Shown here: one piece after another, positions 13,202 to 45,284 of the stretch
Layout: the number at the start of each line of letters is the position of its first letter
Position numbering within the stretch: the first letter of the stretch is position 1
Assembly (NCBI GenBank): GCA_040386275.1
Contig: JAZKFU010000008.1
Span: 6,853-70,852 of the forward strand
Reading direction: 5' to 3'
Length of the DNA: 64,000 nt
Source: Patescibacteria group bacterium
GTDB lineage: Bacteria > Patescibacteriota > Minisyncoccia > Phycocordibacterales > UBA918
Notes under the pieces: generated by a model
What the model was told of the DNA's origin: nothing
Seen by the model: the letters and a program-made list of their open reading frames with translations, nothing else
Databases searched by the model: none
Position numbers and translations under genes: made by a program

Positions 13202-14323
13202 ATGTCACTTTTTACTTTTAACTCAAAATTTATGAATCAGGCTCTTTCTAAAAGCACTGCTTTTACCATTGCGCTGTGTCTCTTCGCTTCATTTGCATCA
13301 TTTGCAGTGCCGGCTGAAGCTGCTACCGCAAAACCTACCTGTACGCTAGCGTTTAGTTATGACGGCAAGACAGGTCAAACCAAATATGATGAAGAAATTT
13401 CTATCCTCAAAAATACTCCCATCACACTTGTCTGGAGTAGTAAAAATGCTACCAAGGCTATCGATGGAGATCGAAACACCGTGGCTACATCTGGAACTGC
13501 TACCGTCACACCAGCCGTTAAATCAGAGTATGCCTATACCTTTAGTCAGGGTAGTAAAAAGGTAACCTGTAGTGTGGAAGTGAGTATTATTTCTGGCACC
13601 ATTACTACCAAAACCGTAGCTAAAAATGGTGAAAAAATTAACCTAACCGGGAAAGTAACCGGTGTTAAAAAAGTAGCGGTAGTAGTGTATGCCGAAGGCA
13701 CCACCACCCCTGCCTATACCACCAAAGCCCTGTCGGTAAAAAACAAAAAATATAGTTTCAAAATGCCGAAGGCCTTGCCTGATGGAAATTACCGAATTGT
13801 GCTACAAACAACTGGTACAGCACCCGTAGTGCTCGCTTCTAGTACCTTGGCTGTTGGGAAAGTACAACCGCTTGCGCAATCACACTTGGTGGTAAAAACT
13901 ATTCCGTTACTCGTTGGTGGTACCGCCAAAGTGGGGAGTAGTGTAGCGGTGTCATACATCCAAGTTATTAACGTTGGTACCAAGCCCGCCAACCTGACTG
14001 GATTTACCTTTGCCCAAAATGGTACCGCTCCGGTGACTGCAATTGCCGGTATGACGATTAAAGATGAATCAGGGTTAATTCAAGGGTCAGTGGGGACTAT
14101 GGTAACCGGTACACCATTTGTGGGAACGAGTGCCGCTATTCCGGTAACTGCTACCTTGGCACCAAAAGAATCACGACTCTTTACGGCTCGGGCAGTGGTG
14201 AGTCCAACTGCCGTAGCAAACGTTGGACAAACTATGTCTTTGTCACTGCAAGCCATAACGGGTGATGCAAAAGTACAAAGTTCACTGCCACTTGCCGGTG
14301 TTACGTGGACGATTGTTCAGTAG
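13202..14323 (+). CDS. secreted Thr/Val-rich hypothetical protein (likely beta-sandwich surface protein)
   Basis: Signal peptide (…SFAVPAEAA), low-complexity T/V/G-rich body, perfect terminator downstream. Confidence 0.55.
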   Translation: MSLFTFNSKFMNQALSKSTAFTIALCLFASFASFAVPAEAATAKPTCTLAFSYDGKTGQTKYDEEISILKNTPITLVWSSKNATKAIDGDRNTVATSGTATVTPAVKSEYAYTFSQGSKKVTCSVEVSIISGTITTKTVAKNGEKINLTGKVTGVKKVAVVVYAEGTTTPAYTTKALSVKNKKYSFKMPKALPDGNYRIVLQTTGTAPVVLASSTLAVGKVQPLAQSHLVVKTIPLLVGGTAKVGSSVAVSYIQVINVGTKPANLTGFTFAQNGTAPVTAIAGMTIKDESGLIQGSVGTMVTGTPFVGTSAAIPVTATLAPKESRLFTARAVVSPTAVANVGQTMSLSLQAITGDAKVQSSLPLAGVTWTIVQ

Positions 14324-14337
14324 TCACTTATATAAAA

Positions 14338-14374
14338 TAAAAAGGGGGCCCGACAATGTCGGGCCCTTTTTTAT
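14338..14374. terminator. bidirectional terminator aaaaaGGGGGCCCGACAatgTCGGGCCCtttttt
   Basis: Perfect GC-rich hairpin between convergent genes. Confidence 0.7.
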
Positions 14375-14844
14375 GGTCGAGTAAATTTGTGAACGGTTTC
14401 TTCCATCACATCTTCAACGTGGACTTCAGCCTCGCTTTCGAAATCAAATACTCCAGCCATGATGCACGCGATCTTCCAGTCTTCCATGACCATTCGGTTG
14501 CTACGGGATTTCTTCCGTATTTTTGAAACAGACTGGTAGACAATTTTTTCTAGTTCCGCCACTTTTGTGGCGATTAAATCATCCAAGATGCGAATGGCGT
14601 GCTCACCCTCATCGGTATCCCATTCGTATTCTTGTGCTAGGCCGTACACCGTATCGCGACTAAGCATCATGAGAATAGATTTCAATGTTTGCTTAGTAAA
14701 TTGGCGATGATACTGATGGTGAAGGTGGTCAGGCTTCGAAATGGCTGAAAAAATCTCAGCACACAAATTAAGTATGATCTTCCCGTGAGAGTCCCGACTA
14801 TAGATTTCAGGAATCCCTATCACTTCCCAGACGCTTTTGTCCAT
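14371..14844 (-). CDS. hypothetical protein (157 aa)
   Basis: ORF only. Confidence 0.45.
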   Translation of the reverse strand: MDKSVWEVIGIPEIYSRDSHGKIILNLCAEIFSAISKPDHLHHQYHRQFTKQTLKSILMMLSRDTVYGLAQEYEWDTDEGEHAIRILDDLIATKVAELEKIVYQSVSKIRKKSRSNRMVMEDWKIACIMAGVFDFESEAEVHVEDVMEETVHKFTRP

Positions 14845-14942
14845 CGACGTGCCCTCGTGTTTTTATGACTGTCCACTACCTAGAGTGCCAAAATTATAGG
14901 TTTTTGGCAAGGTCAAAGGTTTAATTCCATAAACTTGCTATT

Positions 14943-16214
14943 TTGCGTGACGCTGGCATAATTTTGATAATATTATACTCATTAATAGAGATTATAGTGA
15001 TAATTTTAAAACACGGAACAATTGAAGCGGTTGAACTGGATAACGAGGTTTTTAAAACTTTGTTGGGTTTTTATCCTGAGGAAAATTTGGTTGAGTATCG
15101 TCTTTTTAAGGGTCCTATGGAAAAAGGTTCGATGACAATAACCGAGCTAAAGGACGCCAGTGAAAAAATTCACCTTCCATGGCAAATGTTCTTGTTAGAT
15201 ATGGTTAATCTAGAAAGAGAATTAAAAAATATTGAAGATAATCGACTTGATAAGTTCCCTAAAGGTACTTTAGAGATTCATAAGAGAAAAGGCGCTGGTT
15301 GTATTACCTCAAAACGTATTATAGACAGACAAATCAGAATTCAGGCGTTTGTAACTTCTCAGCTTCCAGCCAATTTTATTTGTGATTTTGTTGGTTCTCT
15401 GAAAAATAAAACAGTTGACCATGCAGTCAAGCATATCATTGAATATTTCCAAATCAACCTTAATCATTTTCGTACTTATGATGAAGCAGAGAAGGCGAAG
15501 AATTATTTGATCTCTCGTATACAGTCAAAACAAAACATAAATGTTGCCCAAGGGGTGCGAACAAATGGTATTTTACCTGAAATTAAAAATACTTTAGAGA
15601 TTTATAGAAATACGAGTGGTTTTGTGGTGCAAGACAAGAAACTTCCATTCATCTTTTTGCCAAGTGAAATAAATCCTGACGAAAATCATTATCGACAAAT
15701 TTACACCCTTCTTTATTTATTGGTAGTAGTTGGTATGAATGAGTTTTCTCACGCAATTGAAAATTACTCAATTAAGAAAATTAGAGAGGACAAAAAATTT
15801 AAAAAAATTAACATGATTGTTTCTGAGCTGTTTTTGCCGTCTTTAGTTACTAATACCCTAGATCAAAAAACGATAGATAAAGAAGCGATCAATAAATTGA
15901 AGATGGACTATAAGTTATCGTACTCTGCTGTGCTTTATGTCCTAAGAATGAGAAAAGTTATTGATGCTGATTTGGCTAAGGAGCTCGATTTGCCCAAGAG
16001 GCAACCTAGTAAGGTTAAAGAAGCTGTTGAATCAGCAAAGACATATTTCTCTCATCCTCACATTACTACTTCAGTTAAAAAATTCTGCGGGGACGTAGCA
16101 ACAGTAAGTATAAATACTGCTATTAGAGATGGACTATACCCTAATCGAAGTCAAATGATTGTGTTTGGTCGACCTAGAAAAGATAAATGGATTGAGCTCC
16201 GTTCAAGAATATGA
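14943..16214 (+). CDS. hypothetical protein of the AT-rich island; possible degenerate ImmA/IrrE (M78)-like domain. True start may be the internal Met at about 15115
   Basis: Segment VVVGMNEFSHAIENY…(about 25 aa)…SELFLPSLV resembles the M78 HExxH…E..F..L.P core but reads NEFSH, so it is probably inactive. The 3' end overlaps the next gene (ATGA). Confidence 0.45.
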   Translation: MRDAGIILIILYSLIEIIVIILKHGTIEAVELDNEVFKTLLGFYPEENLVEYRLFKGPMEKGSMTITELKDASEKIHLPWQMFLLDMVNLERELKNIEDNRLDKFPKGTLEIHKRKGAGCITSKRIIDRQIRIQAFVTSQLPANFICDFVGSLKNKTVDHAVKHIIEYFQINLNHFRTYDEAEKAKNYLISRIQSKQNINVAQGVRTNGILPEIKNTLEIYRNTSGFVVQDKKLPFIFLPSEINPDENHYRQIYTLLYLLVVVGMNEFSHAIENYSIKKIREDKKFKKINMIVSELFLPSLVTNTLDQKTIDKEAINKLKMDYKLSYSAVLYVLRMRKVIDADLAKELDLPKRQPSKVKEAVESAKTYFSHPHITTSVKKFCGDVATVSINTAIRDGLYPNRSQMIVFGRPRKDKWIELRSRI

Positions 16215-16675
16215 AAATAATCGATATGAACATTATTAGTAAGTATTGTGCTGGGGAAATTCAGGTTGATTTTACTGATCCGGTGTACGTTACTTCAGAA
16301 CTTAAGGATGAAATTGAAATACACAAAGCGTCTTTTCCAGGTCATCGTACAAAACTTCAAGGGATAAAGTTTGTAGATATTGAAATGTATCAATATCCTG
16401 GCGGAGAACATTTTGATGAAGCAAAATATTTATTCCATTACAAAAAACTTATTAATAAATATACCAAGATCACTTCATTCTACGGCCTAAAAGGTGTGGG
16501 CGATATGTCTATCTTGGCAGCTGTTGCAACACTTTTGGGTCGAAATAATCCATCTTTATTCGATGCACAAGAATCAATTGAAGTTATGACTCATGATATG
16601 GATTTAAAAGTAGCATTAACTGAAGAATTTGGAGATTTAATAGTTGTCATTGATCCGCTCACATTACAACAATAA
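16211..16675 (+). CDS. hypothetical protein, PIN-like nuclease fold suspected
   Basis: N-terminal IIDMNII motif, internal acidic residues, GDMSILAAVATLLG…THDMD pattern similar to PIN D…ilAaA…TrD; translationally coupled to the upstream gene. Confidence 0.4.
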   Translation: MKIIDMNIISKYCAGEIQVDFTDPVYVTSELKDEIEIHKASFPGHRTKLQGIKFVDIEMYQYPGGEHFDEAKYLFHYKKLINKYTKITSFYGLKGVGDMSILAAVATLLGRNNPSLFDAQESIEVMTHDMDLKVALTEEFGDLIVVIDPLTLQQ

Positions 16676-16781
16676 AACCAACAACAGCCCTCGGGTTTTT
16701 ACCCTCAAGCATCACAATAATCTCGTCTAGAAAAATAGGAATAAAATAGACCCGTATAGGTACTTCAGGTATACTCCAAAT

Positions 16782-18044
16782 ATGCCCGAAAAACGTTATG
16801 TGTTTAGAGTTAAGGAAAACAAACTCTATATAGTCTATATTGCTGAAGATGTAACTTGGGTGTTTGGTAATCTGGAACTTTCGGGCTCTGCTAGTCTGCG
16901 AGGAAAAGTTTTTACCGTTACAGGGGGTGAGATACTGAGTGGGGTTGAGCACTTATCACAAGAAGCAGAATTTCCAATAGGAAAAAAGGAAGGTGAGTAT
17001 TATAAAATTAGTCCTCAGATATTAAGTACTCAAAAACCTATTTTTATACATGAAAGTGTAATTGACGATTTTGAGCCCGAAGATTTTTTCGTAAGGCAGC
17101 CTTATTTTGAAAGAACTGCTGGTGACGGTTCTTCAATAGGAGTTCAAAATGAAAAATTTATTCCGATTTTCCCAGTACTAGAAAAAATGTTTGACGAAGT
17201 GTTGCGTATAGGAGGAGAGGAAGAAAATAGCATACCGTTAGAGGTGTTTAAAAAAGCCATTAGTGTTTTACCTGATAGAAAAGAAGTTAAAAGATATCTT
17301 GATGCAAGAATTGCACATATTATTGGTGAGTACATAACACCAAAAAGAGATTTTGACACTCATCACGAAAAGTTAATTGCACACCGTGAAGCACAACTAA
17401 CAAGGAGAAATTTAACTCCAACTCTGTTCCAAGAAACTAAAGAATTAAAAAAGGAAATTTTTCAGATTGCGTATGATGAACTTAAAAGGATGCTTAATGG
17501 CAATCTAGTAACTATACCTGAAAGTGAATGGCAAGATAAAATTTTGGACATCATATTACTTCTGTACCCCAAATACGTTCACAAAGAAAAGTCTGTGGAA
17601 GTCATTAAAGATCAAGGGTATGGTTTGGTCGATATTATGTTATTTGATGCTGCAGGATTTGTTGATTTGATTGAAGTTAAGAAACCTGAGGTAAATGGGG
17701 TGGGCGTGCTTAGAAAAGCTTTGTACCGTAAAAACTACGTACCGAGCAGAGAACTATCTGGTGCAATAATGCAGGTTGAGAAATATTCATTTTGGTTGTC
17801 TAGGTGGGGTAAAAAAGGAGAGGAAAAGATTCAGCAAAAATATGCGAACGAACTACCAGATGGTATGAAAGTTAAAATAGCGAATCCAACGGGAATAATT
17901 ATCTTCGGGCGAGATGAAGATTTCAACGAAGAAGAAAGACAGGATTTTGAGGTGATAAAAAGAAAATACAAGCATGTGGTCGATATATTGACCTATGATG
18001 ACTTACTAAGGAGGATTGCAAACATAATCAACATACTAGAATAA
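16782..18044 (+). CDS. Shedu-like (DUF4263) PD-(D/E)xK nuclease-domain protein
   Basis: C-terminal region GLVDIMLFDAAGFVDLIEVKKPE … ELSGAIMQVEKYSFWL … GIIIFGRDEDF…VVDILTYDDLLRRI matches my recollection of DUF4263 hallmarks (D…iElK, QxxxY, viiGr, iTYDdLl). Confidence 0.55.
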   Translation: MPEKRYVFRVKENKLYIVYIAEDVTWVFGNLELSGSASLRGKVFTVTGGEILSGVEHLSQEAEFPIGKKEGEYYKISPQILSTQKPIFIHESVIDDFEPEDFFVRQPYFERTAGDGSSIGVQNEKFIPIFPVLEKMFDEVLRIGGEEENSIPLEVFKKAISVLPDRKEVKRYLDARIAHIIGEYITPKRDFDTHHEKLIAHREAQLTRRNLTPTLFQETKELKKEIFQIAYDELKRMLNGNLVTIPESEWQDKILDIILLLYPKYVHKEKSVEVIKDQGYGLVDIMLFDAAGFVDLIEVKKPEVNGVGVLRKALYRKNYVPSRELSGAIMQVEKYSFWLSRWGKKGEEKIQQKYANELPDGMKVKIANPTGIIIFGRDEDFNEEERQDFEVIKRKYKHVVDILTYDDLLRRIANIINILE

Positions 18045-18268
18045 TAAGACAACCTAATTGGGGAGGTTGAGTATTTCACAAGACATACTTAGTTTAGCAG
18101 GGTATTTTTTTTACCCCTCTCTAAACGGCGCTTTTTGCAGGAATCGAACCTTTGTCAATAAAAGTATATACTTAAATAAGGGTCACTGAATCATGGACTT
18201 CAGAAAGTATCTACCTATCTATTTCTAAACGCTCTTTTAACAAAATGTAAAGTTCATTCTAATTAAGT

Positions 18269-22324: not shown

Positions 22325-22870
22325 TTAGGCGTGCATTTTATGGCGCGCGCAAGCCACATTTTGTTCGTACTCTTCACGGGTGAAGGTTCTTGGGGGGTTC
22401 AATCTTTCGAGAAAGAGAATGCCATCGAGGTGATCTTGCTCGTGTTGGCAGACTCGGGCTAGAAAACCTCTAAAGGTTTCCCGTACTCGTTTACCTTGGC
22501 GATTGGTGAAGGCCATGGTGACCGTTGCGTGTCGGGGGACTAACCCGTAAGTGTCCGGAATGCTCAGGCAGGATTCCCAGTCGGTAACCTTCCTCTTTGA
22601 TCGTCTGAGAATAACAGGATTGATCATTGCGGTTGGTTCGCGCGTGGGAGCGTCGGGGTAGAGGGGGCAGGGTTTTGAGGAGATAATGAAGATTCTCCGA
22701 TCCTCATTTACCTGCGGTCCAGCTATCCCAAGGCCATGTGCGTTCTGGTAGGTCTCAATCATATCGTCGATGAGTTTCTGAATAACAGGGTCATCGACCG
22801 CTTCAACTTCGTGGGCTTCCTCGGTGAGGATTGGATGCCCGATTTTTACGATGGGCAGCACGTTGGGCAT
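22325..22870 (-). CDS. def: peptide deformylase (copy 1; start taken at MPNVLPIV with RBS aaggaggg)
   Basis: GIAGPQV, CLSIPD and QHEQDHLDGILF motifs. Confidence 0.85.
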   Translation of the reverse strand: MPNVLPIVKIGHPILTEEAHEVEAVDDPVIQKLIDDMIETYQNAHGLGIAGPQVNEDRRIFIISSKPCPLYPDAPTREPTAMINPVILRRSKRKVTDWESCLSIPDTYGLVPRHATVTMAFTNRQGKRVRETFRGFLARVCQHEQDHLDGILFLERLNPPRTFTREEYEQNVACARHKMHA

Positions 22871-23196
22871 GATGCCCTCCTTTGAATTTGAATGATGGGG
22901 AACTGTTTCTGTAACTATCTTACAATTTGTTACTAACAAATACAAGCAATTGTACACACAAGTAGTTAACTAGGTTAAGATATTCGAAACGCAGCATGTC
23001 AACATACATTTCTACTATAATAATGAAATATAGGTTCAACCTGAATCTTAGAGACTTCGATTACTGTGCTAATCGCTGGGTAGGTTGGCTTTTTGGTCAT
23101 GGCTAACTCCTGTTAAGAACATCTACAATGTATAACGTACAAAATTAAAGTTTATTTCGGAAACTGATTTAATTAATACAAAAACTAACGTAAGAA

Positions 23197-24376: not shown

Positions 24377-24793
24377 TTAATGACCCTGAAACACCAGTTC
24401 CCGGTATTCATAAGCGAGGACATCAACAGGTGGCTCTTCGATCGCCTTGTGTCGAACAAAGAGAACACCATTCCGTAGAAGCATGTTTGGCCCTGCGCTA
24501 CCCAGGTAGCGTCCGAACGAACCCACAACAGCGCCTGACTTAGCAAAGGCCTTACAAAGCTCGACAAGCAACTCTGTCGGCTTGTCGTCTTCGGAAATAT
24601 ACTTTTCAATCTGACCATCTACATCAATGTGGACTGTGCTGTGGTCAGAGCAATTCAGCACCTTGCTTTTATCACCCATCAGGTTAAGAACAAGAAAAGG
24701 TTGCTTGAACGGCAAAGGATTATCTGCATTTGCAGACATATGCGGATTGAACCGCATCATAATTCTTGCCATAAAGTCTGCTGCATCGGTCAA
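24377..24793 (-). CDS. hypothetical protein (138 aa)
   Basis: ORF only; alternative overlapping frame 24295-24618 judged less likely. Confidence 0.4.
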   Translation of the reverse strand: MTDAADFMARIMMRFNPHMSANADNPLPFKQPFLVLNLMGDKSKVLNCSDHSTVHIDVDGQIEKYISEDDKPTELLVELCKAFAKSGAVVGSFGRYLGSAGPNMLLRNGVLFVRHKAIEEPPVDVLAYEYRELVFQGH

Positions 24794-24910
24794 TTTAAAA
24801 TCCTCCTTGGATTGCTGGGAACAGGGTTTGAGTTCAACTAATAAATTAGAACACTAAGTGTGTTATGTCAATGTAAAGCTCGCAGGGCTGGATTCGAAGC
24901 TCACAGCTTC

Positions 24911-25140
24911 AGTACAGGTTGTCGCTCGTTTGTTTCCTTTCAGTCACAAACGTGACAGGCTACCTTTTCGAATCCTGCCGTAATTGACATTTAGTCACTT
25001 ACTCCCGGGGCAGGAATTTCGGTTGTTACACAACCAGTATCCCAATTGGTTCTTTTATTTCCTTTCAGTCATAAAAGTGCTCAATTGGGCTTCGAATCCT
25101 GACGTAAGGCACATTTAGTGCCTTACTCCCGGGGAGCATT
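24911..25140 (+). repeat. two tandem ~123-bp units containing tRNA-Asn 3'-end-like segments split by a stable 9-bp hairpin
   Basis: Units start tttcctttcagtca…; each has …cttcgaatcctg[c/a]cGTAA..CAtttaG..TTACtcccgggg…; a further tRNA-3'-end-like fragment in opposite orientation at 24868-24898. Confidence 0.6.
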
Positions 25141-25149
25141 AAAATCAAA

Positions 25150-25172
25150 AACACACCCGCAGGTGTGTTTAA
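25150..25172. terminator. bidirectional hairpin AAACACACC-cgca-GGTGTGTTT
   Basis: Perfect 9-bp stem between the tRNA 3' end (minus) and the plus-strand repeat array. Confidence 0.6.
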
Positions 25173-25183
25173 GATTTTATATG

Positions 25184-25506
25184 CTCCCCGGGCAGGATTC
25201 GAACCTGCGACCAATCGATTACACGTATTCATGCGTTACTGCATGGGTGGACTATATCATCACCGGTCACATTATTGTGCTGACGGTGCAAGGCGCTTCG
25301 AAAGTTTTCACTTCCTACTCCCGTTAGGGATAGTCTCTGAACCTTCAATTGGATTTCTCCAAAAGCTTGGCTGCTGATTGCCCTGGCTTGCGCCGTGGGG
25401 GTTCCAGCAATTCACCTTGTTTGCAATATCGATTTCTCGATAAGGCTGCTATTTTGAACATTGTTCAATGTTACAGTCGACTGCTCTACCGCTGAGCTAC
25501 CGAGGA
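25184..25506 (-). tRNA. tRNA-Asn(GUU) interrupted by a 251-nt group I intron (exon 1 = 25506-25473, exon 2 = 25221-25184)
   Basis: Minus strand: TCCTCGG-TA-GCTC-AGCGGTA-GAGC-A-GTCGA-CTGT | intron | TAA-TCGAT-TGGTC-GCAGG-TTCGAAT-CCTGC-CCGGGGA-G. All stems pair; the spliced anticodon loop CTGTTAA and discriminator G match bacterial tRNA-Asn. Confidence 0.8.
25222..25472 (-). ncRNA. group I (IC3-like) self-splicing intron in the anticodon loop
   Basis: Contains P (GAATTGCTGGAA), Q (AATCAGCAGCC), R (GGTTCAGAGACTATCC) and S (GATGATATAGTCC) core elements; IGS GCAG pairs with exon CUGU giving U:G at the 5' splice site; intron ends in G. Confidence 0.8.
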
Positions 25507-25665
25507 AGGTAACTTACTTCAACTTTATCCTAATGCTTAGGGTTCATGACTCTGGTTCGCAGTCGACCAAGGTCGACCTTCTTACTTTCAACTGAGTGAA
25601 CAAAGTGGACAAAATTATTTTGTACATTTTTGAACGAGGGAAGAAAGGAAGTTTACTTACAGAAG

Positions 25666-25746
25666 CTGTTCACTCATTGGGTATTTTTACAAAATCCCTC
25701 AATGAGTCTTGCGAACTGACATTGAGTCAGTTCTCACTCTACCGCT
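25666..25746 (+). ncRNA. structured RNA-like motif, copy 1 (two hairpins between conserved CUUACAGAAGCUGUUCA … UCUUGCGAA … UUCUCAC)
   Basis: Conserved single-stranded segments and hairpins whose stems differ from copies 2 and 3 by fully compensatory changes. Confidence 0.4.
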
Positions 25747-25859
25747 TACGCTACCTCAGGAAGGTGGCTACTTTTTCCTTGAAAATGCTTAACAAATTCA
25801 AGTGCCTGTATTGTACAGAAAAATAGAATATATTCAATACGATGGGCGGGGAGGGGAGT

Positions 25860-29494: not shown

Positions 29495-30097
29495 TTACGT
29501 TACCAACTTTTCTTTCTCTTCTTTCTTTAATTTCTTTTTAGCTTTTTCGAGTTCGTCCTTGTGCCAGATTTCTTCGGCGCGATCGGTGAATAAAATGCCA
29601 TCAAGGTGGTCATATTCGTGTTGGATGATTTGCGCAAGTAGAGAACCGGCGCCACGTTCGTACACTTTGCCGTGTTCATCTTGAGCACGAATGGTGACGT
29701 TGGTGGACCGGCGGACAATACCGTAGTACTCAGGAATTGAAAGGCAGCCTTCGCCCACTTCATGTGTCTTTTTTGAATACTTCACAATTACGGGATTGAT
29801 GGCAATGAGAGACGGTAAGGCGTCACGATCTTTACTTTGGTCTTCAATCAGGAAAATACGCTTACTGACACCAATTTGCGGAGCAGCAATGGCTACTGCG
29901 GTGTATCCGTCTACTTTGTAAGTATGAAGCGCAGACCGCATATCTTTTAAGATTTTAGCAACCGTGCCATCAGAAAATTCTCCCGAAGTAATTTCTTCGG
30001 CAATGGTATGGAGGGCAGGGTGATTTTCGGGTACGAGCTTGGCCATAATTAATGAGCGTACTATAGCGTATTTACAGAGAAAAATGAAGTAAAACAA
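29495..30097 (-). CDS. def: peptide deformylase (copy 2; true start probably MAKLVPEN at 30046)
   Basis: GIAAPQIGV, GCLSIPE and QHEYDHLDGILF motifs. Confidence 0.85.
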   Translation of the reverse strand: MFYFIFLCKYAIVRSLIMAKLVPENHPALHTIAEEITSGEFSDGTVAKILKDMRSALHTYKVDGYTAVAIAAPQIGVSKRIFLIEDQSKDRDALPSLIAINPVIVKYSKKTHEVGEGCLSIPEYYGIVRRSTNVTIRAQDEHGKVYERGAGSLLAQIIQHEYDHLDGILFTDRAEEIWHKDELEKAKKKLKKEEKEKLVT

Positions 30098-31330: not shown

Positions 31331-31374
31331 TTTAAATAACCTAATTTGTTTCAAAAAGCGTTCAGATACTAGGT

Positions 31375-31454
31375 GTGAGAAAGTCTGGGAGACTTTCGTA
31401 AGACTCATTGTGGTATTTTGAAAAAATACCCAATGAGTGGATAGTTTCTGTAAG
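31375..31454 (-). ncRNA. structured RNA-like motif, copy 2
   Basis: Reverse complement gives CUUACAGAAACUAUCCA-[CUCAUUGGGUAUUUUUUCAAAAUACCACAAUGAG]-UCUUACGAA-AGUCUCCCAGACU-UUCUCAC. Confidence 0.4.
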
Positions 31455-31464
31455 AAAGAAGTAA

Positions 31465-31505
31465 AATGATGCGAGACGTACTTTTTGTACGTTGAACAGC
31501 ATTTT
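31465..31505 (-). repeat. hairpin repeat family member (reverse orientation)
   Basis: gcgagACGTACtttttGTACGTtgaac. Confidence 0.55.
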
Positions 31506-31546
31506 GCGCACCACAACAACGTAGATGAATGTTTTTTGAAACAAAT

Positions 31547-33445
31547 TTATACGATGCGGTCGGGGTTGATGGTGATGGCTACATACGGCGGCACATGTCG
31601 CAACGTGTCTATCAAATCTTTAGTATCTACACTCGGGTCAAGCCGAAGCAAACAATGCCGTAATTGCTCTTTGGCTTTGGAGTGCGGGTTGGTGTAAAAC
31701 GAGCCGGTAAGATTGTGCATGGCGAGCATCTTTTTAATTACTGCTTCGGTCTCAGTGATAACCGTAGCGTTTCCTTGCCAGGAAAAGAAAATAAACTTGG
31801 CAAACGGTGGATACTTGAGCATTTGTCTGAGGGCAATCTCATCATCATGAAAACGGTCTACTGCAGCGCGAGAGGCGTATATAAGTAAGTCATCGGTCTC
31901 GCTACGCGTTTGAATCATTACTTCGCGACTACTGTGTTCGCGAAGTTCTAAAATCATACGAAATACTGTCTCGTCGGCTCGCCAGGAGGGAATTGCGCGC
32001 ACCGCGTCGAGGGATACAATAGCCGACATACTAATGTTGGTTGGGATATAGGGCATGACCATCTGCGTGCCCAGTAAAATTGCCCCTTTTTGTTTTTCAA
32101 AATCTTTTGTCAGTTGGGTTGCGCGTTTGTGAGTGGTCGCTGTCGTGTGGTCAAAAATAGTGAGGGGAGTTTTGGGAAATACTTTGCGGCACTCATCTTC
32201 AACTTGTTGGATACCAATCCCACGTTCACGCAATCGCCAAGAACCACATTGAGCACACACATCAGCAGCCCGAACTCGTTTGCCTGAGGTGCTTGAGACA
32301 AACCATCGTTCTTCAACGTGTTCTTTGTTTAGGGTACGCAAAAGTGAGTAGGGTGTACCTGAATCAGGACAGCGAAAAATATACCCACAGTCAACACACG
32401 CAACAACTGGTGCGAGGCCGCGCCTCGCAGCAAATAAAAATACATTGTGCCTGCCTTCGAGAGTAGTTTCTATGCGCTTAATCAGTTCCGGCGAAAATAA
32501 TTGAAACGGAATATCGTTTTTAGGTTTATCGGTTTGATTGATGATGGTTAATTTCGCGGGGAGCTCGAGACGAATGGGATGTTCACCAAAAGTCTGGTAG
32601 ATATCATTTCTTCGTTTGTATTCATCTTCAGTAGCGATAAGTGTGTCACCTAAAATAATGCTGCGTTTAGTGATAGCAGCTAAAGTTTTAAGGACGGCAC
32701 GGTGGTCAAGGTGCGGTCGCGTTCGCATTACGTAATGTGGACTGGCGGCATTTTCCATAATGATGGTTGTGCTGTCGGCTCGTTCCAAATAGGCAAAGCT
32801 CGGAGTGGCGATAGTGAGGGTGGCGTGGGTGAGGTCACCAAAGGCCGTGTACGCTCGTTCACGTTCTTTTTTGGTTTGGTGGCTTGAGAAACAAATGACG
32901 CGTTCGCTAATGCCTCGTTCGAGCGCCCGTTTCATTGTATCGACGGCAGTACTTGTTGGTACAACAAGCAGGACTGATCCGCGGTGGGCAAATGCGCTAC
33001 GAATTATAGTTTGGTACTGAATGATACGGTCACCTTCACTAGCACAGAGAATTTGGGGCGTGCTATCTTCGTTGTTTATTTCATTAAGGGGAGTGCTGGG
33101 GTATGGGGCGACTCCTGTGCGGATATCAGGTGGTAAAAGACTAAATAAAATCGCTCCTCGTTTGGAAGGATTTTCAGTATACAGTTTGTCGACGGTAGCG
33201 AGTAAGCTTGGCGCAATTTTTTGGACGTCTTTTTGTTCCGGAAGTTTCCGCAGAGAAAAGGTAGCCGCTTTAAGCGCCGTTTTAGTGGTGGAAACAGCTT
33301 TGCCGTCGACGACAATGCCGCGAATAGTCTTGCCACGTACCGGAATGGCTATAATTGAACCCACATCATAGTTGGTGCTGGAAAAATACGATAAGGACTC
33401 AATTTGGATACCGCGAACGAGAGGAATTACTTCAATAACAAACAT
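31547..33445 (-). CDS. priA: primosomal protein N' (PriA helicase)
   Basis: Helicase core (LLVVPTSTAVD…), Cys-rich zinc-binding insert (CVDCGYIFRCP…CAQCGSWRL), C-terminal domain. Confidence 0.85.
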   Translation of the reverse strand: MFVIEVIPLVRGIQIESLSYFSSTNYDVGSIIAIPVRGKTIRGIVVDGKAVSTTKTALKAATFSLRKLPEQKDVQKIAPSLLATVDKLYTENPSKRGAILFSLLPPDIRTGVAPYPSTPLNEINNEDSTPQILCASEGDRIIQYQTIIRSAFAHRGSVLLVVPTSTAVDTMKRALERGISERVICFSSHQTKKERERAYTAFGDLTHATLTIATPSFAYLERADSTTIIMENAASPHYVMRTRPHLDHRAVLKTLAAITKRSIILGDTLIATEDEYKRRNDIYQTFGEHPIRLELPAKLTIINQTDKPKNDIPFQLFSPELIKRIETTLEGRHNVFLFAARRGLAPVVACVDCGYIFRCPDSGTPYSLLRTLNKEHVEERWFVSSTSGKRVRAADVCAQCGSWRLRERGIGIQQVEDECRKVFPKTPLTIFDHTTATTHKRATQLTKDFEKQKGAILLGTQMVMPYIPTNISMSAIVSLDAVRAIPSWRADETVFRMILELREHSSREVMIQTRSETDDLLIYASRAAVDRFHDDEIALRQMLKYPPFAKFIFFSWQGNATVITETEAVIKKMLAMHNLTGSFYTNPHSKAKEQLRHCLLRLDPSVDTKDLIDTLRHVPPYVAITINPDRIV

Positions 33446-34031: not shown

Positions 34032-35540
34032 TTAAAATTCGTCTAGATATTTTATATCCGCTCCTAAGGAAGCGAGGCGGGCTACTAGATTTTCATAACC
34101 CCGATTGATACTGTAGATGTTACGCAAGACCGAGCGACCAGAACCACCAAGCATCGCGATGAGAAGAATTGTTGCAGGACGCAGAGCGGGCGGACAGATA
34201 AGCTCGGCTGATTTAAGTGGGGTCGGGCCCGTAATGTAAATACGGTGCGGGTCCGCCAAGACCGTGTCCGCTCCAAGTTTCTCGAGTTCAGTAAAATAGA
34301 TGGCTCGCTTTTCATACATCCAATCGTGAATCAGGGTTTGGCCCGAGGCTTGAGTAGCAATCACCGCAAAGAAGGGGAGGTTGTCTGCGTTGAGTCCCGG
34401 GTACGGGCGAGAGTGAACTTTTTCTGGTGAAGCTACTAATTTGCTTGGTTTGATTTTTAGGTCCACCAACTTGGTGTATCCATTTACTGCCAAGTACGGT
34501 TTGGAGGTTGAGTATTGCAAGCCCATTTTTTCCAGCACCAACAGTTCTAGTTCTAAAAACTCAATCGGTGCGCGAGTTATGGTGACTGCTGAGTTAGTTA
34601 CAATCGCTGCTGCGATAAAGAACATACTATCGGTTGGATCTTCTGCTAAGGTGTATTCAATATCTGTATGGATGTCGGCCACCCCGGTGACAGTTAAGGT
34701 GGTAGTCCCAATACCTTCAATCTGTACGCCAAATAGTTTAAGAAAGACACAAATTTCTTGCACCATGTAGTTAGCACTCGCATATTTAATCACCGTTGTG
34801 CCTTCATGTAAGGCTGCGGCAAATAAAACATTTTCCGTAACCGTGTCACCTGATTCATAAAGAATAATTTCAGTCGGTTTTTTTACGTCAGTTGTGACTT
34901 TAAATTCTTTTTCGGTTGTCTCGATGTGCACGCCATAATGTTCAAGCGCGTAAAAATGAGGACGAACGGTCCGACTACCCAATTTACATCCACCAGACTG
35001 TGGGAGACTAAATGAAGACATCTTGTGAATCAGTGCGCCGATGAACATGACGATGCTGCGGGTTTTTCGCGCGGCTTCAACATCAATTTTTTTGAGGTCA
35101 AACTTTTTTGGGGGTGTAATGGTGATGGTGCTACCGGTCCAGACTATGTGCATCCCGATACTTTGCAGTACCTCGATGATTCGGTGTACTTCTTCTATGC
35201 GGGGCATACGATGGAGGGTAGTCACGCCACGGTTTAATAACGAAGCACACAATAGGCCGACAGCGCCGTTTTTACTGGTATTGGTTTCAATGGTACCGGA
35301 GAGTTTTTTGCGTCCGTTAATTTCAACGTTCACCGTGCCAGGTGAAAGGGTAATTAGATTTTTACCTAACGCTACACCAATTTTTTTTAACATCTCAGCA
35401 CTGATATTTTGTGTGCCTGATTCTAAACGAGCGACGGCACTTTGGGTGGTTTTTAATTTTTTAGCCAGTTGGGTTTGCGTAAGGCCGACGGATTCTCTTA
35501 AATCTGCAATTCGATTTCCAATATTTTCCATAGTTCTCAA
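34032..35540 (-). CDS. murA: UDP-N-acetylglucosamine 1-carboxyvinyltransferase fused to an N-terminal XRE-type HTH domain
   Basis: Residues 1-62 (…IADLRESVGLTQTQLAKKLKTTQSAVARLESGTQNISAEMLKKIGVALG) are a Cro/C1 HTH. The remainder is MurA (INGRKKLSGTIETNTSKNGAVGLLCASLL…LPQSGGCKLGSRTVRPHFYALEHYGV with the catalytic Cys). Single uninterrupted 502-aa ORF. Confidence 0.85.
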   Translation of the reverse strand: MRTMENIGNRIADLRESVGLTQTQLAKKLKTTQSAVARLESGTQNISAEMLKKIGVALGKNLITLSPGTVNVEINGRKKLSGTIETNTSKNGAVGLLCASLLNRGVTTLHRMPRIEEVHRIIEVLQSIGMHIVWTGSTITITPPKKFDLKKIDVEAARKTRSIVMFIGALIHKMSSFSLPQSGGCKLGSRTVRPHFYALEHYGVHIETTEKEFKVTTDVKKPTEIILYESGDTVTENVLFAAALHEGTTVIKYASANYMVQEICVFLKLFGVQIEGIGTTTLTVTGVADIHTDIEYTLAEDPTDSMFFIAAAIVTNSAVTITRAPIEFLELELLVLEKMGLQYSTSKPYLAVNGYTKLVDLKIKPSKLVASPEKVHSRPYPGLNADNLPFFAVIATQASGQTLIHDWMYEKRAIYFTELEKLGADTVLADPHRIYITGPTPLKSAELICPPALRPATILLIAMLGGSGRSVLRNIYSINRGYENLVARLASLGADIKYLDEF

Positions 35541-37061: not shown

Positions 37062-39830
37062 ATGTTCGAGCGTTCATCAAAACAATTTGCGTCGCCAGAG
37101 GAGGAAGTGCAATATTTGCGCGAGCGGATTGCGGTGCGCGAACGAGAAATATTAGGACGGACAACGGAAGTTGATCACGCTGATTACGAAACCATTGCCA
37201 AACAAGAGTTACACGACTATGGCATGTTTACACCCAAGGTTATTCTAAATCCCGACCACGCGTTAACTGATCATGAAGTGGCGTCTCATAAAGAAGCACT
37301 CATCACCAGTCGGGACCCGGCTGAACAAATCGTGCAAGTTGCCTTTGAAAAGGGAATTCGCAATGCGCTAACGCTTTTGGAAAAAGTATCCAACCCCTTT
37401 GTGATTGATGAAGTGCATCGGCAATTAATTGAACACATAAAACAAGGGCAAACGGTCCAAGATATGAAAGAAGGGGTACCACCCTGGGGCATATTACACA
37501 TGACGCTGTTTGAAGTGACCTTGCCCGAACTTAAGGGAGTGAATGATAAAGAGTATCAACTAGCTGATTTGGTGGGGATGATGGAGCAGTTGTTTGCGGG
37601 TATGCGCAGTATTGCACATACCGATACCCGTAATACTTTTGTGTTTGAAATTGCGGTGGCTGACAATAGTGATGACATTATTTTTTATACCGCGGTACCA
37701 ACGCAGTTCGTTACCTTGTTTGAAAAACAAACTTTGTCCCTATTCCCGCATGCCGTAATTATCGAACAGCTCCATGACTACAATATTTTTGTACCTAATG
37801 GTACGAGTATTATTGCTGATGTCACCTTAGAGAAACATCCCATTTATCCATTACGCAGTTACGATCAATTTAGTGCTGATCCACTCAATGTAATTTTAAA
37901 TGCTTTTTCAAAAATCGAACGCGAAGGAGGAGGTGCGGCGATGCAATTTATTGTCCGGTATCCAAAAAACGATTACCGTAAAACGTATTCCGAAATATTA
38001 AAGAAAGTGCAAAAAGGCACCAAGCCAAAAGAAGCCATTGCGCGCAGTACGATTGGTGGCGAAATCGGAGCGTCGGTTTCTGAGTTGTTTTTCTCTAAAC
38101 CAAAAAAAGAAGGGGAGTATGAACCACCAAAGGAAGTAGATACTGAAGCGGTAGAATTATTCTCTAAAAAAATTACGAGTCAGATAGTCGAAACTAATAT
38201 TCGGATTGCGGTTTCAGCTACCGTGCCTCACCGAGCTGGTCAAATCATGTCTGAGCTTGCCGCCACCCTGCATCAATTTGCGACGGTTGATAGTAACCAG
38301 TTTGTCATTACTGAACGAAAGGGAACTGCTCTTAAGGTAGCCGAGAAAGCATTTTCATTCCGAGAATTTAATCCTAAAGTCACCATTCCGTTGTCCTTGA
38401 CTGAATTATCTACCATCATGCACTTTACGGGTAATGGTATCTCAACGTCGCCACAATTTAAACAATCAGGCGCCCTGACCGCAGCTGCACCAACTGAAAC
38501 TCCGACCGAGGGGACTCTGCTTGGGATAAACAAACACCGCAACTTGGAGAAGAAAATATTTATGACCGAGAAGGACCGCATGCGCCATTTCTACGTCATT
38601 GGGCAAACCGGTACCGGTAAGTCAGTGTTTTTGAAAAACCTCATTACACAGGATATTTTGCGCGGGGACGGAGTCTGTATGATTGATCCGCACGGGACTG
38701 ATATCGTTGATATATTAGGAGCAATTCCACCGGAACGAGAAAAGGATGTGATTTATTTTGATCCCTCTAATTTGGATATGCCAATTGGGCTTAACATGTT
38801 GGAGTACGACCAAAACAAGCCCGAGCAAAAGACGTTTGTGGTTAATGAGTTGTTTTCAATTTTCCAAAAGTTATACGGTGGCAACCCAGAATCAATGGGT
38901 CCAATGTTTGAACAGTATTTCCGAAATGCGACGTTACTCGTGATGGAAGATCCCGATTCAGGAAATACCTTAATGGATATTTCGCGCGTAATGGCAGACG
39001 CCAAGTACCGTCGAATGAAATTAGAGAAAGCCAAAAATCCAGTGGTGGTGCAATTTTGGCGTGAGATTGCAACCAAAGCCGGTGGGGAGGCATCGCTCGA
39101 AAACATTGTGCCGTACATCGTATCTAAATTTGATGTGTTTACCGCCAACGATTACATGCGTCCAATTATTGGCCAGCAAAAATCAGCGTTTAATTTCCGT
39201 GAAATCATGGATGAGAAAAAAATTCTTCTCGTGAATCTTTCTAAAGGACGATTGGGTGAGATTAACGCTAACTTAATTGGGATGATAATTGTCGGCAAGC
39301 TGTTGATGGCGGCGTTGTCTCGCGTAGATAATGAAGCGATGGATTTCCCACCGTTTTATTTACACATTGATGAGTTCCAAAACGTATCAACACCGTCAAT
39401 TGCCTCAATTTTGTCTGAAGCGCGCAAGTACAAATTAAGTCTCACCATGGCCCATCAGTTTATTGCTCAGCTTGATACTGATATTAAAGATGCGGTGTTT
39501 GGTAACGTAGGCTCTATAGCGTCATTCCGAATTGGTTCAGATGACGCGCAGTTTTTAGAGAGTCAATTTGCTCCCGTATTCCAAGCATCAGATTTAATGC
39601 AGGTACCTAATTACAACGCGATGATTAAAATGCTCGCTAATGGTACGCCAACTAAACCGTTTAGTTTAGCCACGATGCCACCGTTTACCGCCAATAGTAG
39701 TAAGGTGGCCGAACTTAAATCTCGTTCAGCACAACGGTATGGACGCCCGAGAGCCGAAGTAGAAGCTGAAATTGACGCTCGCTATGTGAAAGAGCCACTG
39801 TTGCCACCACCACTTAGTGGTATGATGTAG
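37062..39830 (+). CDS. VirB4/TraC/TraG-superfamily (type IV secretion-like) P-loop ATPase, 922 aa
   Basis: Walker A GQTGTGKS, Walker B LHIDEFQNV, C-terminal ARKYKLSLTMAHQFIAQLD (RKY…Q motif of T4SS ATPases); about 500-aa N-terminal domain without homology I can name. Confidence 0.55.
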   Translation: MFERSSKQFASPEEEVQYLRERIAVREREILGRTTEVDHADYETIAKQELHDYGMFTPKVILNPDHALTDHEVASHKEALITSRDPAEQIVQVAFEKGIRNALTLLEKVSNPFVIDEVHRQLIEHIKQGQTVQDMKEGVPPWGILHMTLFEVTLPELKGVNDKEYQLADLVGMMEQLFAGMRSIAHTDTRNTFVFEIAVADNSDDIIFYTAVPTQFVTLFEKQTLSLFPHAVIIEQLHDYNIFVPNGTSIIADVTLEKHPIYPLRSYDQFSADPLNVILNAFSKIEREGGGAAMQFIVRYPKNDYRKTYSEILKKVQKGTKPKEAIARSTIGGEIGASVSELFFSKPKKEGEYEPPKEVDTEAVELFSKKITSQIVETNIRIAVSATVPHRAGQIMSELAATLHQFATVDSNQFVITERKGTALKVAEKAFSFREFNPKVTIPLSLTELSTIMHFTGNGISTSPQFKQSGALTAAAPTETPTEGTLLGINKHRNLEKKIFMTEKDRMRHFYVIGQTGTGKSVFLKNLITQDILRGDGVCMIDPHGTDIVDILGAIPPEREKDVIYFDPSNLDMPIGLNMLEYDQNKPEQKTFVVNELFSIFQKLYGGNPESMGPMFEQYFRNATLLVMEDPDSGNTLMDISRVMADAKYRRMKLEKAKNPVVVQFWREIATKAGGEASLENIVPYIVSKFDVFTANDYMRPIIGQQKSAFNFREIMDEKKILLVNLSKGRLGEINANLIGMIIVGKLLMAALSRVDNEAMDFPPFYLHIDEFQNVSTPSIASILSEARKYKLSLTMAHQFIAQLDTDIKDAVFGNVGSIASFRIGSDDAQFLESQFAPVFQASDLMQVPNYNAMIKMLANGTPTKPFSLATMPPFTANSSKVAELKSRSAQRYGRPRAEVEAEIDARYVKEPLLPPPLSGMM

Positions 39831-45077: not shown

Positions 45078-45081
45078 TAAA

Positions 45082-45284
45082 GAAGCTATGAAAACGGCAC
45101 ATTGCGTTGTCACTGCTGCGGTACATTTCCTTCCGCCGTGAGAAAGTCTGGGAGACTTTCGCAAGAGGTTGCCAGCTCTTTTGTAAAAGAGCGATAACCT
45201 GAACAGCTTCTGTAAGAAGCAAGAAGTACGTCTACAGAAAATGTCCTTGCGTTCCTAGCACTGCACTCGTTTTCATAGCTTCTT
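45082..45284. mobile_element. MITE-like element with perfect 16-bp terminal inverted repeats
   Basis: agaagctatgaaaacg (45082-45097) and cgttttcatagcttct (45269-45284) are exact reverse complements; interior carries structured-motif copy 3 and a hairpin-repeat fragment. Confidence 0.45.
45138..45216 (-). ncRNA. structured RNA-like motif, copy 3
   Basis: Reverse complement gives CUUACAGAAGCUGUUCA-[GGUUAUCGCUCUUUUACAAAAGAGCUGGCAACC]-UCUUGCGAA-AGUCUCCCAGACU-UUCUCAC. Confidence 0.4.

Follow-up and report, generated by a model that had tools for sequence, protein, structure and literature searches.

The stretch analysed here (the window) comprises 64,000 nt of contig JAZKFU010000008.1 (positions 6,853 to 70,852, forward strand) of the Patescibacteria group bacterium assembly GCA_040386275.1, and the element under study is a pair of tandem, hairpin-rich repeat units, U1 and U2, which lie on the + strand facing a tRNA-Asn gene across a terminator. 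The window is bacterial chromosome with a G+C content of ~43-44%, in which Pfam and NCBIfam scans identified genes for ATP synthase, penicillin-binding proteins, MreB, aminoacyl-tRNA synthetases, fmt and def. Proteins of neighbouring genes matched metagenome-assembled genomes labelled 'Patescibacteria group bacterium', and the labels on related contigs include Kaiserbacteria, Parcubacteria, Pacebacteria and Paceibacteria. Related genome and metagenome loci that were compared with the window are designated by L-numbers (L001 and so on).

The exons of the tRNA-Asn(GUU) gene were read from the sequence (exon 1, 25506-25473; exon 2, 25221-25184); they are separated by a group I intron of 251 nt (25222-25472), inserted after anticodon position 35, to which the Rfam model Intron_gpI matched at 25229-25467 with 79.9 bits, the only Rfam family to pass in the window. 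ARAGORN, run over the whole window, called no tRNA, the intron-bearing tRNA-Asn included; it overlooked all intron-containing tRNA-Asn copies, and intron-less orthologues were called tRNA-Asn(gtt). The intron itself is patchy among the relatives compared (L005, L010, L029-L031, L036, L037, L049, L051, L061, L063), being present in some and absent in others. The terminator between units and tRNA is intrinsic and bidirectional, a G+C-rich hairpin with a T run that scored on both strands, and equivalent hairpins are found at all related loci. Upstream of the tRNA, at a distance of ~300 nt in the window, is a promoter-like site at which relatives carry a conserved TGTATTGTACAGAAA block. An earlier note on this DNA had reported two tandem ~123-bp units on the + strand, a terminator hairpin beside them and an intron-containing tRNA-Asn nearby, and all of these were borne out, the units as direct repeats at a spacing of 124/125 with 81% identity. 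The features around the tRNA gene are as follows; hp0, hpA and hpB denote the three hairpins of a unit.

24878-24898, + strand: 5' arm of U1, GCTCGCAGGGCTGGATTCGAA, an antisense-type copy of the tRNA-Asn 3' end
24896-24910, + strand: hp0 of U1, GAAGCT-CAC-AGCTTC
24915-24965, + strand: hpA of U1, delta type, loop TTCCTTTCAGTC
24966-24979, + strand: T-loop and T-stem 3' strand of tRNA-Asn copied in sense orientation in U1, TTTCGAATCCTGCC, which complements the tRNA gene at 13/13 positions
24980-25002, + strand: hpB of U1, GTAATTGAC-ATTT-AGTCACTTAC
25003-25022, + strand: acceptor-like tail of U1, TCCCGGGG, fused to the 5' arm of U2, CAGGAATTTCGG
25021-25035, + strand: hp0 of U2, GGTTGT-TAC-ACAACC
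25041-25089, + strand: hpA of U2, alpha type, CCCAATTGG...CTCAATTGGG
25090-25103, + strand: T-loop and T-stem 3' strand of tRNA-Asn copied in sense orientation in U2, CTTCGAATCCTGAC
25104-25126, + strand: hpB of U2, GTAAGGCAC-ATTT-AGTGCCTTAC
25127-25138, + strand: acceptor 3' strand, discriminator and two following gene bases of tRNA-Asn copied in sense orientation in U2, TCCCGGGGAGCA
25128-25192, no strand assigned: extended palindrome formed by pairing between the tRNA 3' end and the tail of U2, with the terminator as its tip (free energy -49.1 kcal/mol, z -9.2)
25149-25170, both strands: bidirectional intrinsic terminator
25184-25506, - strand: tRNA-Asn(GUU) gene with its group I intron
25737-25764, + strand: CTCTACCGCTTACGCTACCTCAGGAAGG, which repeats positions 27-1 of the antisense tRNA-Asn 5' end as a pseudo-copy (genuine sequence at 25484-25509)
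25810-25837, - strand: promoter-like site TTGAAT-16-TACAAT upstream of tRNA-Asn, conserved in relatives

U1 (24878-25013) and U2 (25003-25138) follow one another at ~124 bp and are 81% identical over ~127 nt. Two families of direct repeats run through them in register, one of the form TTCGAATCCTG(C/A)CGTAA..TTACTCCCGGGG (24967-25010 and 25091-25134; 86%, spacing 124) and the other of the form TCGTTTGTTTCCTTTCAGTCACAAACGTG (24926-24954 and 25051-25079; 86%, spacing 125), and the window has two occurrences of a 22-nt loop motif for which 0 are expected. With a covariance model built from homologues, the score was 127 bits for U2 (E 4e-30) and 99 bits for U1 (E 4e-23). The full-unit order in related loci, on the strand equivalent to the + strand of the window, is 5' arm, hp0, CAGTAY, hpA, TTCGAATCCTG(A/C)C, hpB and TCCCGGGGAGC; hp0 is a short stem with a TAC-containing loop (UUACA or CUACG), hpA is a long hairpin, conserved short linkers (CAGUAY, CUUNCGAA and CUCNC) join the core hairpins, and the unit ends read GCTCC.../...GGAGC. 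Homologues differ by insertions and deletions that are not multiples of three, which speaks against a coding unit.

Within each window unit, TTCGAATCCTG(C/A)C, a 9-bp hairpin and TCCCGGGG together hold 13 + 10 nt of tRNA-Asn on the strand opposite to the tRNA gene, and these parts correspond to the T-loop, the T-stem 3' strand and the acceptor 3' strand; in tRNA-linked units generally, it is hpB that splits this sense copy. The earlier note had taken the fragments for the T-arm and acceptor 3' strand of tRNA-Asn with a hairpin inserted, a description which is right as to the tRNA match but falls short as to the unit, since the units are larger and have three hairpins and an antisense 5' arm. 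Similarly, the third fragment that it had placed on the minus strand at 24868-24898 exists, matching the tRNA end at 83% over 24 nt, but it is the U1 5' arm at 24878-24898 and not a separate relic; this arm pairs with U1 TTCGAATCCTGCC (13 nt, 92%). No terminator separates U1 from U2, and the identical type of junction is found in L015 and L041. When the tRNA strand is considered, the tRNA end and the 5' arms of U2 and U1 are direct repeats, which in the window bound only 124-bp non-coding units with no open reading frames (ORFs) between them. At L041 (535-677, - strand) the tRNA-proximal unit has an enlarged hpB region, apparently of two hairpins, indicating that hpB tolerates insertions.

In tRNA-linked units the flanks copy the neighbouring tRNA in both polarities: each unit carries an antisense and a sense copy of the last ~21 nt, from the T-loop to one base past the discriminator, and in related loci the 5' arm (GCTCCCCGGG-CAGGATTCGAA) is the exact antisense of the last 21 nt. 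The acceptor copy matches each genome's own tRNA, reading CCGGGGAGC in the window, CCGCGGAGC in L015, TCGCGGAGCC in L061/62 and GGTCGCGGAGC in L063. At L038, a unit with an alpha-type core faces tRNA-Leu(CAA) and bears tRNA-Leu sequence at the equivalent positions (TGGTGCTGGAGGAGGGACTCGAA at the 5' end; TTCGAGTCC-hpB-CCTCCAGCACA at the 3' end), and the core at L051 has a third kind of tRNA-like 5' arm. Because the arms track Asn in one case and Leu in the other while the core is common, we reasoned that the flanks derive from, or are kept matched to, the adjacent tRNA. The L038 units (1-344) are perfect tandem copies of ~136 nt, with no terminator hairpin before the tRNA. Some 5' arms begin with TGG (L007/L019/L057, L040, L041); the notion of a primer-binding site or retro-copy, which the TGG before the 5' arm in three lineages brings to mind, was set aside as suggestive only, other units copying the gene's own trailer.

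Linkage of the unit to tRNA-Asn extends across the lineage. An initial three-part pattern scan of genome contigs, which required the window-specific hpA loop, gave 0 matches; a pattern scan of one genome per species recovered the unit in 8 Patescibacteria contigs, and wherever those contigs extend far enough it faces the tRNA-Asn 3' end across a terminator hairpin. A metagenome scan added ~20 further unit loci. When loci were sampled independently, by way of the glutaredoxin-like neighbour gene, all lineages with a contig spanning the region proved to have units: L053/54 (two units), L056, L057, L061/62 and L063/64 (a divergent form). The earlier note had suggested that other contigs and related genomes be searched for the unit, and it is there, beside tRNA-Asn. 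Since it occurs in genomes both with and without the intron, the linkage is to the tRNA and not to the intron. The number of downstream units per locus ranges from 1 to 4 and that of leader copies, described below, is 0, 1 or 2. The tRNA side of the locus is syntenic core (the glutaredoxin-like gene, HPF, fmt and def), the unit side is variable, and a second terminator lies beyond the unit on the tRNA strand in L006, L019, L029, L030 and L037.

In order to gauge structural conservation, 30 distinct units from genome and metagenome contigs were aligned, and pairing statistics were taken on 26 distinct sequences. The stems of hp0, hpA and hpB paired in 93.5% of cells, against 36-43% with slid partners, with a covariation score of 0.73 (<=0.135 for slid partners) and two-sided changes in 25/28 hairpin pairs; RNAalifold agrees, and the differences between U1 and U2 in hpA and hpB are themselves compensated pairs. 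The closing stem, formed by the 5' arm and the split 3' copy, paired in 87% of cells against 30-57% when slid, its 3' strand being fixed by the search pattern. Several units have TAGGA/TCCTA in place of its pair CAGGA/TCCTG, and U.G intermediates occur on the + strand. Whole units fold, at minimum energy, into the closing stem and three hairpins (-42 to -74 kcal/mol). The hpA loop sequences are not conserved across homologues. Through quasi-palindrome template switching, a change in one arm of a DNA hairpin can be transferred to the opposite arm, so that two-sided changes alone are no proof of selection on an RNA; units at the same position in different genomes have kept their hairpins through many such changes. 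As to strand, non-Watson-Crick pairs on the + strand comprise 61 G.U and 33 A.C, the fold energies of full units show no preference (-56.3 vs -57.0, p 0.92), and those of the unit body slightly favour the antisense strand. The topology is more tRNA-like when read on the tRNA strand, where hpB falls on the 5' side between the acceptor and T stems.

To determine whether the core occurs elsewhere, the window was searched with a covariance model that combined hp0, hpA, hpB and the 3' strand; the search, filtered or unfiltered, returned five core copies, namely U1, U2 and three more. The three additional copies, with the larger elements that contain two of them, are listed here; MITE stands for miniature inverted-repeat transposable element.

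25652-25735, + strand: core copy within the tRNA-Asn 5' leader (27.6 bits, E 3e-5)
31368-31460, - strand: core copy just past the stop codon of a 632-aa gene (E 4e-6)
31344-31547, - strand: dispersed MITE-like copy around it, outer ends approximate, directly next to the stop-codon TA of the 632-aa gene
45131-45223, - strand: core copy between holB and frr (E 8e-9)
45080-45283, - strand: dispersed MITE-like copy around it, terminal inverted repeats 17/17 (AAGAAGCTATGAAAACG), TA on both sides

The three extra copies have no TTCGAATCCTG insert, and have in common the hp0 loop CTTACAG, the linkers (CTGTNC, CTTGCGAA and CTCAC) and the three stems; Rfam gave nothing on any of them. Dispersed copies measure ~205-225 bp, possess their own terminal inverted repeats of 15-17 bp and have TA on both sides, the repeats of the 31344-31547 copy being AATTTGTTTCAAAAA.. 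/ ..TTTTTGAAACAAATT (~16/22). The spacer between holB and frr is 253 nt in the window and 39-56 nt, with no core, in five relatives (L066-L070), one of which has a frr 94% identical to that of the window. A further case is provided by L034, in which a ~225-bp insertion in the spacer between the glutaredoxin gene and HPF is absent from 7 other genomes; it has terminal repeats AAGAACAAGCATAAATG (~15/17) and TA flanks, and when the element and one TA are excised in silico the TAG stop of the relatives is recovered. Having inverted terminal repeats, TA flanks and empty sites in relatives, the dispersed copies behave like MITEs. TA flanks three of them, although a 2-bp repeat is weak evidence of target-site duplication, and they are found in both orientations relative to neighbouring genes. 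The same three lie at, or <=2 bases from, a stop codon (the TA of TAA/TAG; window 31547 and 45078, L034 ~4682), and at L034 the element provides the third base of the stop codon.

The leader core at 25652-25735 directly precedes the pseudo-copy of the tRNA 5' end at 25737-25764, and core and pseudo-copy are likewise arranged in L005, L034, L047, L053, L057 and L061. One leader copy is present in L005, L034, L041, L047, L057 and L061 and two in tandem in L053; it is absent from L010, L025 and L063, whose leaders are ~30-75 nt compared with ~300 nt in the window, where the leader is so long because the promoter-like site lies outside the copy. Taken with the downstream units, the leader copy indicates that insertions on either side of the tRNA come with a duplicated tRNA-end piece of 21-28 nt.

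We put the probability at about one half that U1 and U2 are members of a MITE-like family of structured non-coding repeats, the tRNA-linked members of which use copies of the tRNA 3' end as their terminal repeats. On this account the element has the tRNA-Asn 3' fragments as its terminal repeats, and they are not relics of integrase sites, since the tRNA-linked copies build their closing stem from the tRNA. Judged from sequence comparison, the family appears to be undescribed and to span genomes labelled Kaiserbacteria, Parcubacteria and Paceibacteria, and its unusual property appears to be that the terminal repeats copy and track the adjacent tRNA end; no description of a three-hairpin, tRNA-end-capped element was found in the literature or in Rfam. 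Of the earlier note's suggestion of a SINE-like (short interspersed nuclear element) array or a tRNA-derived small RNA, the multi-copy repeat family with insertion polymorphism holds; derivation from a tRNA applies to the flanks only and not to the core. Arrays of 1-4 units might grow and shrink through unequal recombination between the copies of tRNA end and terminator, and the match to the tRNA could be maintained by templated correction between nearby inverted repeats, either by quasi-palindrome template switching or by gene conversion. Mobilisation would be in trans, by an enzyme encoded elsewhere, for which the TA flanks suggest an IS630/Tc1-like transposase. At tRNA-Asn, the stable hairpin or cruciform block and the shared bidirectional terminator may part the tRNA-Asn operon from the variable gene region.

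Several observations weigh against the MITE-like interpretation. We know of no transposition or integration chemistry that yields target-derived inverted and direct copies of 21 nt. Neither an autonomous partner nor a transposase was seen in the window or the flanks scanned; among the ORFs of the window and of the islands of L001, L010, L011, L029, L031, L043, L047, L057 and L063, scans with Pfam and NCBIfam found no integrase, transposase or reverse transcriptase. The terminal repeats differ among the three dispersed copies while the core is conserved, whereas ordinary MITE families have the opposite pattern, with the terminal repeats conserved rather than the core, and tRNA-linked units, U1 and U2 included, have no TA flanks. 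Hairpins kept among same-position units point to a constraint that is unexpected in a dead insertion, although template switching could mimic it in part, and the excess of G.U on the + strand hints at a strand-specific single-stranded form.

The alternative that survives best, although we hold it to be somewhat unlikely, is that the units are genes of a functional small RNA mimicking the top half of the neighbouring tRNA, with the dispersed copies as escaped derivatives. Because the unit ends form a helix identical to acceptor plus T stem, recognition by RNase P, RNase Z, the CCA-adding enzyme or another tRNA reader would be possible. A unit stands at the same place in all lineages examined, its hairpins persist through two-sided changes even among same-position units, and its closing stem mirrors the acceptor and T stems and follows changes in the tRNA sequence. 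The tRNA-strand topology (acceptor stem, hpB on the 5' side, T stem and an expanded 'T loop', often with a second terminator beyond), the 5' arms that start with TGG, as if complementary to an added CCA, and the G.U excess on one strand are likewise in keeping with such an RNA. The strand cues conflict, however, with wobble pairs indicating the + strand, topology the - strand and fold energies neither; no conserved promoter precedes the units on either strand, and on the tRNA strand there are ~10 nt between terminator and unit. Against this proposal also stand the unconserved hpA loops, a copy number of 1-4 with dispensable leader copies, the insertion polymorphism of core homologues, and the want of a cloverleaf or of any Rfam tRNA match on the units.

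A bolder proposal, which we consider unlikely, concerns the closing stem itself, which may be a programmable copy, in both polarities, of the last ~21 nt of the tRNA: it might serve as a folded-strand guide or landing site (RNA or DNA) that directs the element or accompanying islands to tRNA 3' ends, or as a mimic of a tRNA minihelix, on which tRNA enzymes act or to which they bind. If so, the Asn, Leu and third-type versions would be retargeted variants of one machine, and a tRNA-matching stem that is functional would constitute a compact, natural and retargetable recognition module, sequence-matched to tRNA genes.

The 3' flank of tRNA-Asn is a recombination hotspot in the relatives. At L057, a 217-bp direct repeat (1820-2036 and 4265-4481, 98.6% identical), whose boundary lies in the T-loop and which comprises a unit, the terminator and 16 nt from the 3' end of tRNA-Asn, flanks a 2.2-kb island that encodes YecM, a NUDIX protein and one unknown, with no recombinase found. 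The island-side junction sequence of L057 recurs beside the unit of L040, and near-identical units adjoin three different right flanks. In L028, L033, L038, L042 and L043 a block of ~28 nt, GCTCCGCTGGGTRRAGGAYGTTCGAACC, recurs with its own hairpin after it, two such blocks flanking a small gene at L043 (3024-3051 and ~3497-3524); these blocks look like diverged displaced tRNA-Asn 3' ends of the kind met in L057 and L040, and an origin from another tRNA was rejected, there being no ARAGORN gene at the blocks.

From such data one may argue that the fragments are attL/attR-type remnants of islands that entered the T-loop-to-3'-end portion of tRNA-Asn, with the unit as part of the att region and possibly as a folded single-stranded site, a reading that we judge very doubtful. 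The similarity to tRNA begins exactly in the T-loop and extends to the 3' end, as in T-loop-type integrase sites, which reportedly form a class in Williams' 2002 classification; the unit-bearing side of the tRNA is variable while the other side is syntenic core, and the repeat around the L057 island, the displaced pseudo-3'-end blocks (L040 among them) and the three right flanks of near-identical units all accord with former insertions. Yet neither a tyrosine nor a serine recombinase was found in the window or the islands by Pfam and NCBIfam, the repeats in the window enclose non-coding units only, and an inverted copy and three conserved hairpins are foreign to ordinary att cores; moreover, the same core occurs at tRNA-free sites with TA flanks, and the leader copy duplicates the 5' end of the tRNA, which is not an integrase target. 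The earlier note had remarked that no integrase lies between the fragments, which is correct and extends to the rest of the window and the scanned neighbouring islands, and it had offered scars of repeated integration and excision as one explanation; that proposal fares poorly, the unit being conserved lineage-wide at tRNA-Asn, with hairpins kept by two-sided changes, a tRNA-like arm that is inverted and no integrase. Lineage-wide conservation with tRNA-Asn, which the note itself had named as telling against its view, is what was observed, and it speaks against att scars. Its idea of a former attachment site thus fails for the fragments as scars and keeps some force for the flank as a whole, given the hotspot and the 217-bp repeat around the L057 island.

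Least probable of all, in our estimation, is that the units are an extended terminator, insulator or processing platform of tRNA-Asn whose distal arm pairs with the tRNA 3' end on read-through: the conserved 65-nt perfect-stem palindrome of tRNA 3' end, terminator and U2 tail (free energy -49, z -9.2), with an arm that co-varies with the tRNA, and the leader core copy, which would be transcribed if the conserved TTGAAT-16-TACAAT is a real promoter, favour it, but termination at the U-tract would precede synthesis of the distal arm, the tRNA, to fold, would have to compete with the trailer for its own T arm and acceptor strand, L010, L025 and L063 have no leader copy, unit number varies, and the core is also found away from tRNAs. 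A cis role in termination or processing of tRNA-Asn is possible and is not needed to explain the data.

A number of known classes were considered and rejected. The units do not match integron attC sites, as no integrase was found in the window or the scanned islands, the ends are GCTCC.../...GGAGC instead of GTTRRRY, and no cassette ORFs lie between units. A tRNA or transfer-messenger RNA gene on the units was discounted because ARAGORN called none and the Rfam tRNA model gave no match on 24868-25172 at E up to 10; the T-stem 5' strand is absent from the units, and they form no cloverleaf. Searches of three loci with Rfam 15 at E up to 10, covering known RNA families, ribozymes, Y RNA and T-box, returned only chance matches resembling microRNAs or long non-coding RNAs. 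A hammerhead-type core was dismissed by eye on account of misfitting linkers, and Rfam reported none. No scanned ORF matched DEDD_Tnp_IS110 or Transposase_20 of IS110, so that a bridge or seek RNA of IS110 type is not supported. A phage origin was likewise rejected: only the intron core matches phage records, and two scans of viral contigs gave four coreless chance matches, or nothing.

Comparison with characterized systems shows likenesses to several of them. It resembles the TA-duplicating bacterial MITEs (Correia of Neisseria and the IS630/Tc1 type) in being ~100-250 bp, non-coding and multi-copy, with hairpin-forming terminal inverted repeats, TA flanks, insertion polymorphism and an intergenic location, often right after stop codons. 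It differs from them in that its core is conserved while the terminal repeats vary by copy, in that the terminal repeats of tRNA-linked members are tRNA 3'-end copies without TA, and in that no parent transposase was found in the window or scanned flanks. With the att sites of genomic islands in tRNA genes and with the integrase-less derivatives of such islands (CIMEs) it shares a tRNA 3' end repeated from the T-loop, tandem arrays, a variable region on that side and, at L057, a bracketed island; unlike them, it has one copy inverted and hairpin-split, encloses a structured core and not cargo, has no integrase that could be found, and has leader copies that duplicate the tRNA 5' end. Integron attC and the attP(+) of CTXphi offer a parallel to the closing stem, as inverted target-like copies there pair into a stem imitating the double-stranded target, structure matters more than sequence and arrays are tandem; in contrast, the units lie in no IntI- or Xer-type context and lack R'/R'' core motifs, and cassette ORFs are missing from the window. 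Lastly, tRNA-derived SINEs and tRNA-like small RNAs (the YrlA/Y RNA domain, mascRNA) also have a tRNA-related part within a multi-copy or small-RNA element and a helix equivalent to acceptor plus T stem, but the units hold only ~21 nt of tRNA, in both orientations, with no intact T arm, D arm, cloverleaf, internal promoter logic or Rfam YrlA match.

These comparisons indicate that fragments of a tRNA 3' end next to a tRNA gene are not necessarily integrase scars. A structured repeat family that is absent from Rfam can now be annotated by covariance model, and the units may be used as a marker of the recombination hotspot at tRNA-Asn. As we found no earlier description in the literature, the dispersed copies may be the first indication that these very small genomes have MITE-like mobility.

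Some further observations concern the surrounding genes. A family of 131-139-aa proteins without domain matches recurs beside units or tRNA-end fragments at varying distance (window 24377-24772, - strand; L001 5001-5402 and 5678-6079; L003 1061-1480); tracing the 131-aa neighbour gene led to L001, although the gene is not syntenic. Two peptide deformylase genes are present, one at 22325-22957 (- strand), beside fmt in the conserved block, and the other at 29495-30097 (- strand), on the variable side of tRNA-Asn, where it is grouped with AhpC-like and glyoxalase-like genes in a manner resembling island cargo; an exact look-up of the AhpC neighbour protein returned no record. A Shedu anti-phage gene (16782-18044, + strand; SduA_C, E 2e-33) lies in a patch of low G+C (35.5-38.8% vs ~44% elsewhere) within 14000-18000 that looks like a small foreign island. 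Just downstream, GGTTCGATTCCTGCAAAAAGCGCC at 18128-18151 (- strand) is similar to the part of another tRNA from the T-loop to the 3' end, and may have been left by an attachment site. Farther along, a 922-aa HerA/VirD4-like ATPase (37062-39830, + strand) is followed by two large ORFs without family matches, and a fusion of a helix-turn-helix domain with EPSP synthase (34032-35540, - strand) is conserved in all relatives.

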